This document shows positions 233 through 7,729 of a stretch of DNA of 64,000 nt, piece after piece. The DNA is from Terriglobia bacterium. Lineage in GTDB: Bacteria > Acidobacteriota > Terriglobia > Acidiferrales > UBA7541. The stretch's first letter is position 1. Each line of letters opens with the position of its first letter. The stretch spans positions 58,442-122,441 of the forward strand of contig JBGPTF010000001.1 of assembly GCA_041490445.1 (NCBI GenBank), in the 5' to 3' direction. The translations under genes were made by a program, and so were the position numbers. Below the pieces are notes generated by a model. It did not search any database and had not been told where the DNA came from. It saw nothing but the letters and a program-made list of their open reading frames with translations.

Positions 233-1534
233 TCAGAGATTCGCGACGCGCCCTGTGACAGGGTGCTCCACCGGCAGGCGCGGCGAAAAGGAGAATCGCA
301 GTTTCGCGTGTGCAGCGCGAAGCGCCGATTCCACACCTGCAGGTGCCGCCGCCCGGGCGAAGATGAATCCCAGATAACTCGCTCCGTCGGGCCAGGCCGC
401 GATGTAGTCGTGCAGCCGCGCCGTAATCTGAATCTCCACGACGCCGGGCACGTGCTCCGCCTCATCCAGCCCTTCCAGGCGTTCGAAGATCCCGCAGCGC
501 GGCACCGGAATCATCATCACCCCGGAAGCCGATTCCTCGCGGGGCAGATCACTGCCGCCGAGCCGCAGTGCGTGACGAACGATCAGCTCTTCCAGGGGAA
601 TCCATCCCGGCCCGAATCGCAGTGCGCGTGAGCAAAGCCCGCCGATCGGTCGCGGCGCCGCTTCGATCACCCAGACGCCTTCCTTATTGATCCGGAATTC
701 AGCGTGGAGCGGCCCTTCCACGAGACCCAGCGCGCTGACGACTTGCTTCGCACAGTTCTCGATCGCGGCCTGCACGCCTGCCGAAAGCCGTGACGGCGTC
801 ACGTAGATTGTCTCTTCAAAGTACGGCCCTTCGAGGGGATCCGGCTTGTCGAAAATCGCCAGCACCCGCAGGTCGCCCGAATCGAGCAGGCCTTCGAGGG
901 CGACTTCCACGCCGGGGATGTAGCGCTCCACGATCAGCCTATCGAGCGCTTTCTCGCGCGTCACCCGAATCTCGGGCGATTCCAGGAGCGCGCGGATTCG
1001 CTTCACCGCCTCGCCAAACTCCTCGGCACTGTTTGCTCGAACGACTCCCTGGCTTGCCGCGAGGGCAAGCGGTTTTACCACGCAGGGAAACTCGACGCGT
1101 TTCAAAACTTTTGTCAAATCATCTTCGGGTGCGAATGAGAAGAAATCCGGAACGGGCAAGCCAGCGCCACGGAGGGCTTCACGCTGGCGCAGCTTGTTGC
1201 GGCAGAGTTCTGTTGCTTCAGGAGGATTGCCCGGCAATCCGAGGATTTGCGCCACGTACGCTGCCGTCGTTGTCGGCCGATCACCCAGCGCCAGCACGGC
1301 GCCGGGCGGGGTCGCGCCCAACCCGCGAACGATTTGTTGCGCCGCACCCGGCGGGTCTTCGAAATGCAACGGAAGCGCGCCATCCGCCCATGGATCGTCG
1401 AGCTGATGGCAGCGGTCCGTCCCGAACATGACTTCCACGCCCAGTTTTTCCGCAGCCTGCGCAAAGCCTCGCGTCTGATAGCCGAGCTTGCTTGCGAGGA
1501 TCAGCAGCCGTTTGTTGGGTTTCTCAGAGTTCAT
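233..1534 (-). CDS. ATP-grasp domain protein (carboxylate-amine ligase type)
   Basis: 433-aa ORF. Pre-ATP-grasp N-terminus (KRLLILASKLGYQTRGF), central ATP-grasp core (FPCVVKPLALAASQGV, LIVERYIPGVEVALEG, EFRINKEGVWVIEAAPRPIGG). Co-directional with, and downstream of, the radical SAM gene. Confidence 0.8.
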   Translation of the reverse strand: MNSEKPNKRLLILASKLGYQTRGFAQAAEKLGVEVMFGTDRCHQLDDPWADGALPLHFEDPPGAAQQIVRGLGATPPGAVLALGDRPTTTAAYVAQILGLPGNPPEATELCRNKLRQREALRGAGLPVPDFFSFAPEDDLTKVLKRVEFPCVVKPLALAASQGVVRANSAEEFGEAVKRIRALLESPEIRVTREKALDRLIVERYIPGVEVALEGLLDSGDLRVLAIFDKPDPLEGPYFEETIYVTPSRLSAGVQAAIENCAKQVVSALGLVEGPLHAEFRINKEGVWVIEAAPRPIGGLCSRALRFGPGWIPLEELIVRHALRLGGSDLPREESASGVMMIPVPRCGIFERLEGLDEAEHVPGVVEIQITARLHDYIAAWPDGASYLGFIFARAAAPAGVESALRAAHAKLRFSFSPRLPVEHPVTGRVANL

Positions 1535-1603
1535 GATGTTCTCGCGGACTCATCCAGTTTCCTGAGTGGTGAATCCCAAACTGTAAGGACCCCTCCTTGG
1601 CCG

Positions 1604-1684
1604 TTACACAAATGCTTCGGCCTGGCGAACCGATTCCCTCACCTTTTTAATGGGGGCCAACTGGTCCCCGGTCGGCTCCGCTCA
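1604..1684 (-). other. Possible selenocysteine read-through extension (UGA 1682-1684 recoded; tail U-AEPTGDQLAPIKKVRESVRQAEAFV, stop TAA 1604-1606)
   Basis: My own translation past the TGA gives C-U-A-E-P, the motif I recall from the RefSeq product name 'CUAEP/CCAEP-tail radical SAM (seleno)protein'. The frame stays open for 25 more codons. Confidence 0.5.
1627..1681 (-). promoter_or_regulatory. SECIS-like stem-loop immediately 3' of the in-frame UGA
   Basis: The mRNA reads UGA-GCG-GAGCCGA-CC-GGGGACC-AGUU-GGCCCC...UCGGUUC. The inner stem is GGGG(A)CC/GGCCCC with an AGUU loop (G in the loop), starting 12 nt after UGA. The outer 7-bp stem is GAGCCGA/UCGGUUC. Confidence 0.45.
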
Positions 1685-3046
1685 ACAGTACCAGGGCTCA
1701 TTCAAGTACGGGACCGCGGCGCGCGAGAGCAACACGGGCTGCGCGCCTTCCGCCACCTCGAACTTCCCTGCCGCGGCATGCGCCGCTTGCCAGATCCGCG
1801 AGAACATCTGCGCGCGTGAACGCTTCATCTTCTCGCCGGAGTGAACGATCTTCTGCAAGTCTTCACACAGGCGATCCAAGAGCGGGTCGGGATGCTTCCA
1901 GGGATACGCGAGCGCCGCTTCGTCGAAGGGGCCAACGATGCCGCGCATTTCCGGCAGCTCCAGCAATCGCGAGCCCGCCGGAATCAGCAGGCGGATGGCA
2001 AGCTGGATCGGCGCAACGCTTTCGACCAAATCGTTCGCGCGCAGCACCTCGAGCAAATCGCAAAAACCGTCGAGCGTAGTCCACGGCGTGAACGGCACGA
2101 AGGTGGGATGCAGCACGAGACCGATGTCGCGGAAAAGCCCCACAACTTTCAGAAAGTCAGTGCGGGTGTGATGTTTCTCGAGCTTTTCGAGCACTTCATC
2201 GTCCACGGACTCGACCGCGCTGGTCACGAACAGGCAGCCGGTGTCGCGCAAAACGGGCAAATGCCGCGCGTGCCGGAGAAGATGCTCGATCTTGATCGTC
2301 GCGTCGTAAGTGGGTCCGGGGAATTCCCGATGCATCTGTTTGACAATTGCCAGCGCGTGGGTGGGCCCGTTGAAAAAATCCGGGTCGCCAAAAGTGATGT
2401 GCCGCGCACCAGCCGCTATCTGGCGGCGAATGTCTTCGAGAACCACCTCGCGGTCCACAATCCGGAAGGCGCCGCCATAGACCGGCACGATCGGGCAGTG
2501 GCGGCAGAGATGCTTGCAGCCCCGGCTCGCTTCGGTGTAGCCGACGACGCGCTGGCTCGCGTCCGGAAAAACGAGCCGCGCATATTTCTCGAGTGGAACC
2601 ATGCCGCTGCGATCGGGTACAACAAATTGCTGCCGCGCCAGCGAGATGAGCGGTTCGCTCTGTGGCTGAATCCCACGCCCCGCTTCGAGCCGAGCGACGA
2701 GATCCGCAAGAGGCTGTTCAAATTCTCCGCCAAGAATTGTGTCTACGCCCCGTCCGCGCAAATAGCTTTCGTTCACCGGGGCGTACAAGCCATAAAAACA
2801 AAGATGGGCGCGCGGCTGAAGGGCGCGAACGGGCTCGATGAGCTGGACGGCCAGGCGCGTGGCGGTATGCATCGGCACGTAGAACGCGACGAGGCCGGCA
2901 GAGCGGACCGGCTCTTCGCGGAACGATTCGCGGGAAAGATCCAGACACGTGACGTGTGCGCCGCGCGCGCGCAGCCAAGCCGCCGGCGAGGCCAGCCCGA
3001 ATGGCTGACGCCCCAGCTCGTACGTCGAAATGAGCAAAACGTTCAT
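1682..3046 (-). CDS. B12-binding-domain radical SAM protein with CUAEP-type tail (conventional CDS up to the in-frame TGA)
   Basis: I moved the start to ATG 3044-3046 (MNVLLISTYELGRQPFG). The 174 codons upstream in the track ORF are P/L/S low-complexity and run through a repeat. Radical SAM motif CKHLCRHC (CX3CX2C) is present. The protein ends ..PYLNEPWYC followed by TGA, and the next in-frame codons are Ala-Glu-Pro. Confidence 0.85.
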   Translation of the reverse strand: MNVLLISTYELGRQPFGLASPAAWLRARGAHVTCLDLSRESFREEPVRSAGLVAFYVPMHTATRLAVQLIEPVRALQPRAHLCFYGLYAPVNESYLRGRGVDTILGGEFEQPLADLVARLEAGRGIQPQSEPLISLARQQFVVPDRSGMVPLEKYARLVFPDASQRVVGYTEASRGCKHLCRHCPIVPVYGGAFRIVDREVVLEDIRRQIAAGARHITFGDPDFFNGPTHALAIVKQMHREFPGPTYDATIKIEHLLRHARHLPVLRDTGCLFVTSAVESVDDEVLEKLEKHHTRTDFLKVVGLFRDIGLVLHPTFVPFTPWTTLDGFCDLLEVLRANDLVESVAPIQLAIRLLIPAGSRLLELPEMRGIVGPFDEAALAYPWKHPDPLLDRLCEDLQKIVHSGEKMKRSRAQMFSRIWQAAHAAAGKFEVAEGAQPVLLSRAAVPYLNEPWYC

Positions 3047-3203
3047 CGCAGGGCCCAGACAAATGGACAAGTCCATTCTAGACGAATTGCGACGCGGGCG
3101 CGCTACGGCGTGGAGCGCATGAGGCCGTGCCCGACGACAATCTTTCCGGTGAAATGCTTCGACGCTCGCACGAGGAATTCCTGATCGGAGCTTCCTGGAA
3201 TGA
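2956..3203. repeat. Direct repeat copy A (248 bp): 5' end of rSAM gene + intergenic + decayed 3' fragment of MBL gene
   Basis: Aligns base-by-base with 3870-4116. My manual alignment gives about 20 substitutions and one 1-nt indel. Confidence 0.9.
3103..3203 (-). pseudogene. Duplicated 3' fragment of the MBL-hydrolase gene (~33 codons)
   Basis: Translates to ..[32 protein letters not shown] compared with the intact gene end ..[32 protein letters not shown]. Confidence 0.6.
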
Positions 3204-3869
3204 AGGGTCTTCGAGGACGGTCTTTTCGCTTCTTCTTCAGAAAAAGTGCGAATTTGTTGCGATCTGGAAGAGGCCCGCCTGTTTGTTTTCAATGAGGTAC
3301 GGCCGATTTTGTTTGAAAAAATGTTGCGATTAGAGAAACGAGCGGATGAAGGAAGTAAAGGAGTTACAGGGGAAGTAAGAACAGGAGGCAGAAGAAGTAG
3401 AGGAAGCAGAGGAGGCAGAGAAAGCAAAGGAAGTAGAGGAAAAGCAGAGGCAGCCTTCACCCCGAAAGCACGTTCTGGGTAAATGAGGCCGGTGCGCGGC
3501 GGTGGCAGTGTGAGGCGGCCGGTTCTGGCTCGTGAAGTCATGGGATACGGTAGCGAGGATGGGGGCAAATTGCAAATCGGAGTGTGTGTGGACAGGGGGG
3601 AGATAGGCGCTAGGTGATAGGTGGTAGGAGATCAGTAAGAGTCCGGGGCGAAGAGTTGAAGGTTGCAAGTTGAGAGTTCAAAGTTGAAGGTTGAAAGTGT
3701 CAGGGCAGAGAAAAGAGAGGAACGCGCAGTGTGGCAGCTTTGGACGAAGACGCCCGTAGGTGCCGGTTCGGTGGTTAACCGGTCTGCTGCCGTGTGGAAC
3801 GCGGCACGTCGTGTCTTGCAGATCATGGCTGCGTCGCCGGCGCTATTGGTCCGGGTAGACACCAAGCCC
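3204..3869. other. 666-bp non-coding insert between the direct repeats (C-poor on + strand, low-complexity)
   Basis: No credible ORF; only P/S/L-rich artefact frames. Contains a purine tract at 3331-3453, TAGG(TG) repeats at 3601-3630 and GTTGA repeats at 3654-3700. Confidence 0.7.
3331..3453 (+). repeat. Polypurine tract (~85% A/G) with 8 GGA / AGGAGG-like motifs
   Basis: Direct reading: ..GGAUGAAGGAAGUAAAGGAGUUACAGGGGAAGUAAGAACAGGAGGCAGAAGAAGUAGAGGAAGCAGAGGAGGCAGAGAAAGCAAAGGAAGUAGAGGAAAAGCAGAGGCAG. Confidence 0.85.
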
Positions 3870-3959
3870 GTGCGCCGCGCGCGCGCAGCCAAGCCGTCGG
3901 CGAGGCCAGCCCGAATGGCTGACGCCCCAGCTCGTACATAGAGATGAGCACTACGTTCA
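3870..3959 (-). pseudogene. Duplicated 5' fragment of the radical SAM gene (~30 codons)
   Basis: ATG 3957-3959 gives MNVVLISMYELGRQPFGLASPTAWLRARGA.., compared with MNVLLISTYELGRQPFGLASPAAWLRARGA in the intact gene. It then diverges and terminates. Confidence 0.6.
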
Positions 3960-4116
3960 TCGCAGGCCCGAGCGAATGGACAAGTCCGTTCTAGACGAAT
4001 TGCGATGCGGGCGCGCTATGGCGTGAAGCGCATGAGGTCGTGCCCGACGACAATCCTTCCGGTGAAATGCTTTGACGCCCGCGCGAGAAATTCCTGGTCG
4101 GCGTTTCCTGGAATGA
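3870..4116. repeat. Direct repeat copy B (247 bp): decayed 5' fragment of rSAM gene + intergenic + genuine 3' end of MBL gene
   Basis: See copy A. Same order and orientation. Confidence 0.9.
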
Positions 4117-4924
4117 CGTGCGTGATGACCAACATCCGTACTCCGGCGGCTTGAGCAACTTCCCCAACTTCCTCCGCGGATGTGTGGTAGTGCTTCAGCC
4201 GCGCGGCAACCATCGGGGTATCGTGCTGGTCGAAATACTCTGGCAGGTAAGCCTCGTGCACGAGGATGTCCGCACCCTTCGCATAACGGATCAGGTTCTC
4301 ACTGGGACGAGTGTCACCGGAGATGACAATGCTCTTGCCGTGCCCGTCGAACCGGTAGCCGAACGCGGGCTCGACCGGACGATGGTCCACGTTGAAAGCC
4401 GTCACGCGCACATCGGCATCCTGATAGATGAAGCCCTGGGTGATGGTGTGGGAATGAATTGTCGCGCCCGCGGGAGGCTGCATCTCCGTCAGATCACGCC
4501 GGATGTGAATGTCAACGGCAAAAAAACGTTCGAGCGAGTCGGACATTTCCCGCACGCCGATGGGGCCGTACACATCGAGCGGAACTGCGCGGCCAAAAAT
4601 CCAGGTGCTGTTGAACAAGTCCGGCAGGCCGGCAATATGGTCGGAATGCAAATGAGTCAGGAAGACGGCGCGGATTTTTCCGAGCTGCAGCGGTGTGGAC
4701 GCGATCCGCAGCACGACTCCCCGCCCTGCGTCAACGACGTAGTACTTTTCGCCGACGACGATCGCGGTGGATGGTCCGAATCGCTCCGGATCGGGCCGAG
4801 GAAACCCGGTACCCAGCAGTAGCACCTCCATCGGCGCTGCCGGGGAAGAGGCAAGTTGCGGGGTTCGGCTCCAGTTCGGAGGAACGAACGCCAAGAAGAG
4901 CAACACGATCCAGATTCTCTTCAT
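4016..4924 (-). CDS. Secreted MBL-fold metallo-hydrolase
   Basis: HLHSDH (HxHxDH) motif. Start placed at ATG 4922-4924 to give the signal-peptide-like [16 protein letters not shown]. Confidence 0.8.
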
Positions 4925-5056
4925 CGCAGTCTCCACACAACGGGCAACGATTCCCGGACATCTTACGCGGGAACATCGCTGCGTCAAATGCGCCGCTTCG
5001 GCAAGACGGCCGATTGCGCTATCATGAGTGGTTCGACAGAGAGGAGTTTCCCTCGC

Positions 5057-7729
5057 ATGTCATCTTCGGCCGCAAATTCATTTGGCTCGCGGGCCACGCT
5101 GAAAGTCGGCGTCCAAAAATTCGAGATGTTCCGTCTGGACGCGCTCGAGAAGGCCGGCATCGGCCACGTTTCCCGCCTGCCGTTTTCGCTCAAGGTGTTG
5201 CTCGAGAATTTATTGCGCAACGAGGATGGCGGCTTCGTTCGCGGGGACGATATCCGCACGCTGGCGGGGTGGGACCCCGCGAAGCCTGCCGACGCGGAGG
5301 TTTCGTTCATGCCGGCGCGCGTGTTGCTGCAGGATTTTACCGGCGTGCCCGCCGTCGTGGATCTCGCAGCGATGCGGGACGCCATGACACGGCTGGGCGG
5401 CGACCCGAAGCAAATCAATCCCCTGCTCCCCGCGGAGCTGGTGATTGACCACTCGGTGCAAGTGGACCGCTTCGGCTCGCTCGGCGCATTCGCCTTCAAC
5501 GCCGAAATCGAATTCCAGCGGAACATCGAGCGCTATGCGTTCCTGCGCTGGGGCGCGAAGGCGTTTCAGAATTTCAAGGTCGTGCCGCCGGATACGGGCA
5601 TTTGCCACCAGGTCAATCTCGAATATCTGGCGCGGGTTGTTTTCTCCGCGGAGAAGGAAGGGACGCGCTTTGCCTTTCCCGACACGCTCGTGGGGACGGA
5701 TTCGCATACCACGATGGTCAACGGCCTCGGCGTATTCGGCTGGGGCGTTGGCGGGATTGAAGCGGAAGCGGCCATGCTGGGTCAGCCGTTCTCGATGCGG
5801 ATTCCCGAAGTCATCGGCTTCAAGCTGCACGGGCGCCTGCCGGCGGGAGCAACGGCGACCGATCTGGTCCTGACGATCACGCAGATTCTGCGAAAGAAGG
5901 GCGTCGTCGGAAAATTCGTCGAGTTCTACGGCACGGGGCTTTCCAATCTCACGTTGCCGGACCGCGCCACACTCAGCAACATGGCTCCGGAATACGGCGC
6001 CACCATGGGATTTTTCCCGGTGGATGCGGAGACCCTGGCATACCTGCGCTTCACCGGCAGAAGCGACGAGCAGGTCCGGCTGGTGGAGGCGTACACGAAA
6101 GAGCAAGGACTTTTCCGCACGGATGCAACACCCGATCCGCTCTTTACGGACCGGCTCGAACTCGACCTCACCAAAATCGAGCCCACGATGGCGGGGCCGA
6201 AGCGGCCTCAGGACAGTGTCCTGCTGCGACACGCGAAAATCTCCTTCGAGAGAACGCTCGAAGGGACTGCCAAGCACGTGACGGTGCAGAACAACGGCGA
6301 CCGATTCGAGCTGGGCGACGGCTCAGTGGTCATCGCAGCGATCACGAGCTGCACGAACACGTCGAATCCGTCGCTGATGATCGGCGCGGGGTTGCTGGCA
6401 AAGAAAGCTACGGAACGTGGGCTGCAATCCAAGCCCTGGGTGAAGACGAGTCTCGCGCCCGGCTCAAAGGTTGTTACCGATTATCTGAAAACGTCGGGGC
6501 TGATGACCTACCTGGAATCGCTGCGATTCCACCTGGTCGGCTATGGCTGCACGACGTGCATCGGCAACAGCGGGCCACTGCCGGAGCCAATCGGCAAGGC
6601 GATCAAGGAGAACAATTTGGTTGCCGTCTCCGTGCTGAGCGGCAACCGGAACTTCGAGGGCCGCATCAATCCCCTGTGCCGCGCGAACTATCTGGCGTCG
6701 CCGCCGCTCGTTGTCGCCTACGCGCTCGCGGGGCGGATTGATTTCGACATCGTGAACGAACCGCTCGGAAAGGACAAGGCGGGGAAGCCTGTCTTCTTGC
6801 GCGACATCTGGCCTTCTCCACAGGAAGTGGAACAGGTGATGCGCTCTTCGGTGACGAGCCAGATGTATCGCAAGGCGTACAGCGACGTTTTCACCGGCGA
6901 CGAGCGGTGGCGCCTGTTGCCTGTCCCCGATGGCGATGGCTATGCCTGGGAAGCGAAATCCACCTACATCAAGCATCCGCCGTTTTTCGAAAATATGCCG
7001 CCGATGCCGGCCGCGCTCACGGATCTTCCCGGCGCTCGCGTTCTTGCCTTGCTCGGCGACAGCGTTACGACCGACCATATCTCTCCGGCTGGCTCGATTC
7101 CGCCCGACAGCCCCGCCGGAAAATACTTGATCGCACACGGCGTGCAGCCGAAGGACTTCAACTCCTACGGCGCGCGGCGCGGCAATCACGAAGTGATGAT
7201 GCGCGGAACCTTTGGAAATATTCGCCTGCGGAACCAACTCGCGCCCGGCACCGAGGGCGGTTGGACGAAACATCTTCCCGACGGCGCGCAGATGGCCATC
7301 TACGACGCGGCGATGCGCTACAAGGAAGAGGATGTGCCGCTGATGATCATCGCGGGAAAAGAATATGGCTCCGGTTCCTCGCGGGATTGGGCCGCCAAGG
7401 GCACTGCACTCCTTGGAGTGCGCGCGGTGCTCGCCGAGAGTTATGAACGCATCCATCGCAGCAACTTGATCGGCATGGGCGTGCTCCCGCTCGAATTCCA
7501 GCCGGGCGAATCCGCGAAATCGCTCGGGATCACGGGCCAAGAACGCCTGGACGTTGAAGGCCTGGCGGAGGGCTTGACGCCGAGAAAGCGAGTCCAAATT
7601 CGGGCGCGAGCCGAAGAAGGCAAGGAAAAGACGTTCACCGTGATCGCGCGCGCGGACACGCCCGTCGAAGTGACCTATTACCAGCACGGAGGCATTTTGC
7701 AGTACGTCCTCCGCCAGATGCTTCAGTAG
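5057..7729 (+). CDS. acnA: Aconitate hydratase A
   Basis: 890 aa from [15 protein letters not shown]. Classic AcnA blocks are present: [66 protein letters not shown] and a C-terminal swivel domain. Confidence 0.95.

Follow-up and report, generated by a model that had tools for sequence, protein, structure and literature searches.

A probable selenocysteine codon in a CUAEP-tail radical SAM gene of a Terriglobia bacterium

Introduction

The question raised by this locus is whether an in-frame UGA codon at positions 1682-1684 of the minus strand ends a radical SAM gene or is read as selenocysteine (Sec). The codon lies in a 64,000-nt stretch of contig JBGPTF010000001.1, referred to here as the window, from the assembly GCA_041490445.1 of a Terriglobia bacterium. 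An earlier note, made from the sequence alone, had translated past the UGA, read Ala-Glu-Pro and 22 more codons up to a TAA at 1604-1606, and proposed a Sec-containing B12/radical SAM enzyme that ordinary gene calling had truncated. The frame is present on the minus strand exactly as described. A 25-codon open extension in G+C-rich DNA has no significance when taken alone, and the case for recoding rests on comparison with related sequences, which is decisive. On that comparison, it is very probable that the UGA is recoded as Sec and that the gene belongs to the NF040546 family, the two claims being taken jointly. The gene is an ordinary member of this known and curated selenoprotein family and not a new kind of element. 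The main yield of the finding is the mending of a truncated gene call, with a corrected annotation at 1604-3046 of the minus strand that includes Sec at residue 455. The question of wider interest is the chemistry of the family rather than anything particular to this locus.

Gene Model and Family Membership

The coding sequence begins at an ATG at 3046, ends with the TAA at 1604-1606, and encodes a protein of 480 amino acids when TGA is translated as U. Its N-terminus, M-N-V-L-L-I-S-T-Y-E, follows the start M-x-V-(V/L)-L-I-S-T-Y-E that all relatives share in the alignment. A longer ORF of 628 amino acids, starting at a TTG at 3568, was rejected, since ATG 3046 is where the family profile and every relative start. 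The 174 extra residues of the longer ORF cross a dispersed repeat and a duplicated gene fragment. At the other end of the gene, the frame runs through N-E-P-W-Y-C454 into the TGA and continues with A-E-P, 22 further codons and the stop. Cys454 (TGT, 1685-1687, minus strand) is invariant in the relatives and forms a C-U dyad with Sec455. The 25-codon tail AEPTGDQLAPIKKVRESVRQAEAFV occupies 1604-1681 of the minus strand together with the TAA and encodes A-E-P-T-G-D-Q-L-A-P-I-K-K-V-R-E-S-V-R-Q-A-E-A-F-V. Ordinary ORF finders miss it and deliver a protein that is 26 codons short and lacks the Sec residue, which is probably the residue that defines the chemistry of the enzyme.

The 480-residue protein, with Sec entered as Cys for the profile programs, scores 649.7 bits against the hidden Markov model NF040546, "CUAEP/CCAEP-tail radical SAM (seleno)protein", for which the equivalog cut-off is 500 bits. 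A family of this name had been put forward in the earlier note; it exists, and the protein lies well inside it. Profile positions 1-467 of 468 are aligned with residues 3-464, and the curated model therefore spans the UGA. A genome-level search with the same model scored the window gene at 643 bits and reported one TGA inside it. The signature C-(U/C)-A-E-P occurs as W-Y-C454-U455-A-E-P, and C454, position 455, A456, E457 and P458 are invariant among 30 relatives. The radical SAM cluster motif C177-x3-C181-x2-C184 (CKHLCRHC; 2495-2518, minus strand) is readable in the sequence and is also invariant in the alignment, and the Pfam radical SAM domain PF04055 is matched at residues 174-311 (3.6e-11). 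The CUAEP/CCAEP family has been named as an uncharacterised selenoprotein with a rare CU motif (Haft, bioRxiv 10.1101/2022.07.06.499078). The window protein shares with this family the W-Y-C-U-A-E-P tail, the CxxxCxxC motif, the alternation of Sec and Cys and a full-length match, and nothing essential sets it apart. It has 25 residues past Sec and the Phe-Val/Leu end seen in most Acidobacteriota relatives, whereas some distant members of the family stop 10-13 residues after Sec.

Selenocysteine and Cysteine Forms

A scan of the genome collection identified 80 related loci, nearly all of them in metagenome-assembled genomes of Acidobacteriota, and the site W-(Y/F)-C-x-A-E-P could be read in 79. 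The codon at the Sec position is TGA in 63 of these loci, TGC in 13 and TGT in three. The Sec/Cys pair test proposed in the earlier note thus has a positive outcome, with a cysteine codon at exactly the UGA column in 16 of the 79 orthologues. A maximum-likelihood tree of the region upstream of the site requires five changes of the Sec/Cys label, at least four of them forced by well-supported branches, and places single Cys forms within clades of Sec forms. The family was also found in 51 of 301 genomes sampled evenly from the phylum (48 of the 51 above the cut-off), and 44 of the 52 matches in these carrier genomes contain exactly one in-frame TGA.

The sequence past the UGA varies in the manner of a protein-coding region. 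Column entropies were taken for codons 11-25 past the UGA, beyond the hairpin described below, in the 53 Sec forms that have 25-residue tails; they are 0.92, 0.45 and 1.49 at the first, second and third codon positions, respectively. This pattern is a coding signature and indicates that the downstream frame is translated. In the same set, AEP, DQL and the penultimate Phe are invariant, and the last residue is hydrophobic (Val in 38 of 53). A Phe-hydrophobic end is also found in most tails of other lengths, Cys forms included. The Cys-form orthologues run on into a homologous tail, so that the conserved downstream frame on which the earlier proposal depended is seen in both forms of the gene.

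The two forms also differ at residue -8 from the Sec/Cys site. It is Tyr in all Sec forms, within the motif P-Y-(L/M)-x-E-P-W-(Y/F)-C-U, and it is His or Phe in most Cys forms (loci L054-L093, with P-H-M, P-F-L or P-H-F). This difference may be a correlated change near the dyad.

The SECIS Hairpin

A hairpin, GGGGACC-AGUU-GGCCCCC, is located at 1652-1669 of the minus strand, separated from the UGA by a 12-nt spacer, GCGGAGCCGACC (1670-1681). It is 18 nt long, with seven pairs including one A·C mismatch, and the second and third nucleotides of its 4-nt loop are G and U. Folded by itself, it reaches -10.1 kcal/mol. Single-sequence folding of 1600-1700 and of 1625-1684 gave results no better than shuffled sequence (z = -0.04 and -1.15, respectively). 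An Rfam scan of 1400-4200 at E <= 1 returned no SECIS or other RNA family, the one sRNA match being a chance one (E 0.46).

Alignment of the relatives is more informative. Across 63 distinct Sec-form rows, the window included, the seven pairs are standard in 86.2% of cells, compared with 35-60% in slid registers. Three pairs show compensatory change on both sides, amounting to 19 doubly changed cells, and none of 500 shuffles of the Sec forms reached the observed pairing or the observed covariation. One such change, from G-C to A-U, combines a synonymous Gly change with a Pro-to-Ser change. In the 16 Cys forms, the same columns are paired in 53.6% of cells, which is background and does not exceed the shuffled or slid controls. 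The hairpin is interpreted as a SECIS because its pairing is kept in the UGA forms and lost in the Cys forms. Within the codons GAC-CAG-TTG, the third positions are invariant in Sec forms and variable in Cys forms, which shows a constraint on the RNA beyond that on the protein. Four distant Sec forms carry a hairpin of different sequence, AAGAGC-AGGUC-GCUCUU, in the same place.

The SECIS-like structure proposed earlier was larger than the one retained here. It had the hairpin enclosed by a 7-bp helix with the arms GAGCCGA (1672-1678) and UCGGUUC (1627-1633), both of which exist on the minus strand of the window. Conservation does not extend to this outer helix: measured over 53 equally long tails, its pairing is 51%, with slid controls at 14-41%, all seven of its pairs occur in the window sequence only, and RNAalifold retains the inner hairpin alone. 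The outer helix was thus rejected as a part of the SECIS, while the inner hairpin stands. The bulged A of the original drawing is better described as the A·C mismatch in a 7-pair helix, the position being an A-U pair in 40 of the 63 distinct Sec-form rows (window included).

The hairpin resembles the SelB-dependent SECIS of the E. coli fdhF type in being placed within the coding sequence, 11-12 nt after the UGA, and in having a small apical loop with a conserved G (and U). In fdhF the spacing between UGA and hairpin is 11 nt. Judged from the Sec and Cys forms, the hairpin here appears to be required only where the codon is UGA. It differs from the fdhF type in its short 7-pair stem, in the A·C mismatch of the window genome and in having no Rfam match.

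In two sister genomes (L028:6188-7574 and L040:7407-8838), the sequence of the radical SAM gene diverges precisely where the SECIS hairpin ends on its 3' side (...GGTTCCC|). What follows is A+T-rich foreign DNA with a tyrosine integrase gene. These two copies have a short tail unrelated to the Sec tail, and they have lost their adjacency to the ATP-grasp gene. Integration in these genomes appears to target either the 3' end of the gene or the hairpin as such.

Selenocysteine Machinery and the Reading of the UGA

The assembly comprises 27 contigs and 3.53 Mb, with a completeness of 97.6% and an estimated contamination of 1.58%. The genes for Sec synthesis and insertion, which the earlier note had named as a check on its proposal, are all there: selA (570 bits), a full-length selB (370 bits) and selD (367 bits) score above their cut-offs, as does a tRNA-Sec (66 bits), identified by ARAGORN as tRNA-SeC with anticodon tca. 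The machinery is found on contigs of this assembly other than that of the window, a placement to be read with the number of contigs and the contamination estimate.

The selD gene appears to be a selenoprotein gene too. It contains one in-frame TGA (contig C21:25932-26879, locus L010) within the motif A-A-G-U-A-A-K-L-S-P, in which the G-U-A-A-K position is equivalent to the catalytic Cys. Its UGA is followed by an 11-nt spacer and a hairpin, GAGUCCCAG-UCUG-CUGGACUC, and CCAGU lies at the same distance from the UGA in selD and in the radical SAM gene. This arrangement fits recognition of both hairpins by one SelB.

Two explanations dispense with Sec altogether. The UGA could be a true stop, so that the enzyme ends at Cys454 and the conservation downstream belongs to an untranslated RNA element, perhaps a terminator or one that regulates the ATP-grasp gene. 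Standard ORF calling does end at the UGA and a hairpin does lie 3' of it. A true stop nevertheless accords poorly with a downstream frame that varies as coding sequence and encodes a conserved peptide, with Cys-codon orthologues that continue into the same tail, and with a curated family profile that reaches past the UGA. No U-run follows the hairpin, and its loss exactly in the Cys forms is expected of a SECIS and not of a terminator. Since the genome also holds a complete Sec machinery, which speaks against it too, termination at this codon is very unlikely. Less probable still, to the point of being negligible, is that the TGA arose by faulty sequencing or assembly, marks a Cys codon damaged in a pseudogene or stands for another amino acid in a variant code. 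The draft state of the assembly leaves room for error, but the TGA recurs at the same column in 63 independent assemblies and in most matches of the phylum sample. The remainder of the gene is intact and of full length, against a pseudogene. TGA must be a stop codon in the genomes of the relatives because many of them end the same gene with it, which argues against a variant code.

With Sec as the preferred reading of the codon, SelB and Sec-tRNA(Sec) would be recruited by the AGUU-loop hairpin at 1652-1669, which begins 12 nt past the UGA. SelB would insert Sec at residue 455, and the 25 further codons would be translated up to the TAA.

Protein Architecture

The predicted enzyme would consist of a B12-binding-like N-terminal domain, a single CxxxCxxC site for the [4Fe-4S] cluster and SAM, and a C-terminal arm carrying Cys454 and Sec455. 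An AlphaFold model made with 30 relatives has a mean pLDDT of 87 and a pTM of 0.88. Its layout is a Rossmann-type N-terminal domain, a radical SAM barrel and a helical C-terminal region with a final helix at residues 460-479. A linker at residues 431-442 is of low confidence (pLDDT < 50) and is followed by the CU segment at moderate confidence. In the model, such a linker ahead of the CU segment would fit a mobile arm.

The description "B12/radical SAM" given earlier holds for the architecture as seen in the predicted fold, and the B12 part of it is weak by sequence. The N-terminal Rossmann-type, B12-binding-like domain (residues 13-116; 2699-3010, minus strand) is seen in the predicted fold and in a match to PF02310 that is below threshold in the window protein (E 0.01, 16.1 bits against a cut-off of 32.1 bits). 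Weak PF02310 matches are also found in 29 of 30 relatives, the best at 7e-8. The best fold matches in the PDB are AprD4 at the top, followed by TsrM, OxsB, MgmA, CysS and TokK (Foldseek E 1e-15 to 1e-10, TM about 0.6). The predicted protein has in common with these structures the Rossmann-type N-terminal domain and the partial TIM-barrel radical SAM core. It differs from them in its sequence, with an identity of 13-19%, and in the sub-threshold PF02310 match. All six are radical SAM enzymes with a B12-binding domain. Cobalamin-dependent enzymes and AprD4 are both among the matches, and AprD4 is not known to bind cobalamin. A sequence search of the PDB at E <= 0.01 found no relative, and no structure of ArsL or of a CUAEP protein is deposited there.

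The invariant cysteines of the alignment are C177, C181 and C184 of the SAM cluster, C271 and C454, in addition to position 455. Cys271 (2234-2236, minus strand) is the only invariant cysteine outside the cluster motif and the dyad. By inference, it is a possible third soft ligand beside Cys454 and Sec455.

The ATP-grasp Partner and Other Neighbors

The gene directly downstream, at 233-1534 of the minus strand, encodes an ATP-grasp enzyme of the L-amino-acid-ligase type with 433 amino acids (PF13535 ATP-grasp_4, 1.3e-34; PF18603 LAL_C2, 5.4e-14). It is co-directional with the radical SAM gene and starts 69 nt after its TAA. An ATP-grasp gene occupies this position in about 74 of the 80 loci. 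Part of the linkage could be inherited gene order, belonging to the housekeeping synteny of aconitase and yggX, and not a sign of coupling. Functional coupling is suggested because the adjacency persists in distant loci in which the aconitase and yggX flanks are absent.

Five distant loci have an extra DUF169 gene. In a Pyrinomonadaceae locus (L100:6001-11915), the CUAEP radical SAM gene stands first in a row with four others, which encode a DUF169 protein, CpaM (a corrinoid protein-associated methyltransferase, 245 bits), an HgcAB-like fusion (332 bits) and a second B12-binding radical SAM protein. The family is placed there beside proteins of corrinoid and organometallic type. A search of the window's own genome found no DUF169, CpaM or HgcAB-like gene, and the link seen in the Pyrinomonadaceae locus is for this reason not transferable to the window organism.

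Kinship to ArsL and Proposed Chemistry

The second-best family of the protein, after NF040546, is ArsL (NF040542), with 282.8 bits and an E-value of 5e-84 over residues 3-405. This score lies below the NF040542 cut-off of 450 bits, and the alignment stops at position 415 of the 423 in the profile, leaving the RCCLKC tail of ArsL unmatched. ArsL, which acts in arsinothricin biosynthesis, is the best-scoring characterized relative; the two proteins have the same domain layout, and ArsL has a Cys-rich C-terminal motif. It cleaves SAM in a non-canonical manner to give a 3-amino-3-carboxypropyl (ACP) species that is joined to As(III), and its C-terminal Cys motif both binds As(III) and is required to form the C-As bond (bioRxiv 10.1101/2024.02.01.577332; 10.64898/2026.04.29.721666). 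Neither of these two papers reports the use of cobalamin by ArsL. The window protein differs from ArsL in its tail, which is C-U-A-E-P followed by 22 residues instead of RCCLKC and is located about 50 residues further on. The gene settings differ as well: no arsM-like or arsenic-resistance gene and no ars operon lies next to the radical SAM gene, which has the genes for the ATP-grasp enzyme and for an MBL-fold hydrolase as its neighbors. The partner is a ligase and not a methyltransferase.

These comparisons suggest a mechanism by analogy. The Cys-Sec dyad, possibly together with Cys271, would hold a soft substrate atom, which may come from among the metalloids, chalcogens or heavy metals, and would offer it to an alkyl species that the cluster generates from SAM. 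An unusual amino acid would result and would then be ligated by the downstream ATP-grasp enzyme. Capture of a soft atom by the Cys-Sec arm is favored because ArsL, the closest characterized relative, binds As(III) with its tail. The functional step as a whole, from capture of the atom by the dyad to ligation of the amino acid, is offered tentatively, as a possibility based on analogy to ArsL.

The main rival, which takes up the redox-active pair suggested in the earlier note, accepts the same recoding and assigns the dyad a different chemistry. The Cys-Sec pair may be a redox center, forming a selenenylsulfide on a mobile arm and supplying the radical SAM site with electrons or a hydrogen atom, or resolving a covalent intermediate. 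The adjacent Cys and Sec stand behind a linker of low model confidence, and Cys replaces Sec in a fifth or so of the orthologues (16 of 79), as it does in thiol/selenol redox enzymes. Such an arm would be comparable to the Gly-Cys-Sec-Gly tail that mammalian thioredoxin reductase uses. Against a redox center, the nearest characterized relative employs its Cys-rich tail for binding As(III) and not for redox, and no thioredoxin-like or reductase partner is conserved beside the gene. The literature also ties bacterial CU motifs to heavy-metal and organometallic proteins, having grouped them with HgcA, MerT and the SAO locus (bioRxiv 10.1101/2022.07.06.499078). A part in holding a soft substrate atom, like that of the ArsL tail, would suit the kinship of the family at least as well as a redox role, which we regard as somewhat unlikely but as a serious alternative.

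A more specific version of soft-atom capture makes the radical SAM enzyme and the ligase a two-step pathway. An ArsL-like transfer of the ACP group to As, Sb, Se, Te or Hg held by the dyad would yield a heteroatom amino acid, which the ligase would convert to a dipeptide. This pathway is speculative and, in such detail, improbable. It may be spread among Acidobacteriota and other soil phyla. If it exists, the dipeptide could be an arsinothricin-like antimetabolite or a carrier of selenium or a metalloid, and Sec would serve as a ligand for substrate capture and not as a redox catalyst. The family is a tractable target in the search for new carbon-heteroatom chemistry, given its kinship to ArsL, its rare Cys-Sec dyad, its conserved ligase partner and its presence in about one-sixth of the sampled Acidobacteriota genomes.

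The Upstream Region

The gene upstream of the radical SAM gene, at 4016-4987 of the minus strand, encodes an MBL-fold hydrolase similar to RNase Z and GntH, with an apparent signal-like N-terminus. It has this position in only five of 80 relatives, and in most of them aconitase is the direct divergent neighbor. In the window, the aconitase ORF lies at 4856-7729 of the plus strand, and its listed start overlaps the start of the MBL ORF by about 130 nt. At least one of the two starts probably lies further in.

A repeat insert of 653 nt at 3204-3856 separates the MBL-fold gene from the radical SAM gene. It belongs to a dispersed repeat family, of which other contigs of the genome carry at least eight sizeable copies (75-82% identity). 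Within the insert, at about 3349-3453, is a 9-nt tandem array. The flanks of the insert, 2943-3203 and 3857-4116, are a direct duplication of about 260 nt with about 91% identity, the whole region extending over 2943-4116. These flanks are much longer than any target-site duplication would be. The duplicated flank consists of the last codons of the MBL-fold gene, the intergenic spacer and the first 35-45 or so codons of the radical SAM gene, and a dead N-terminal fragment of the radical SAM gene is left at 3823-3960 of the minus strand.
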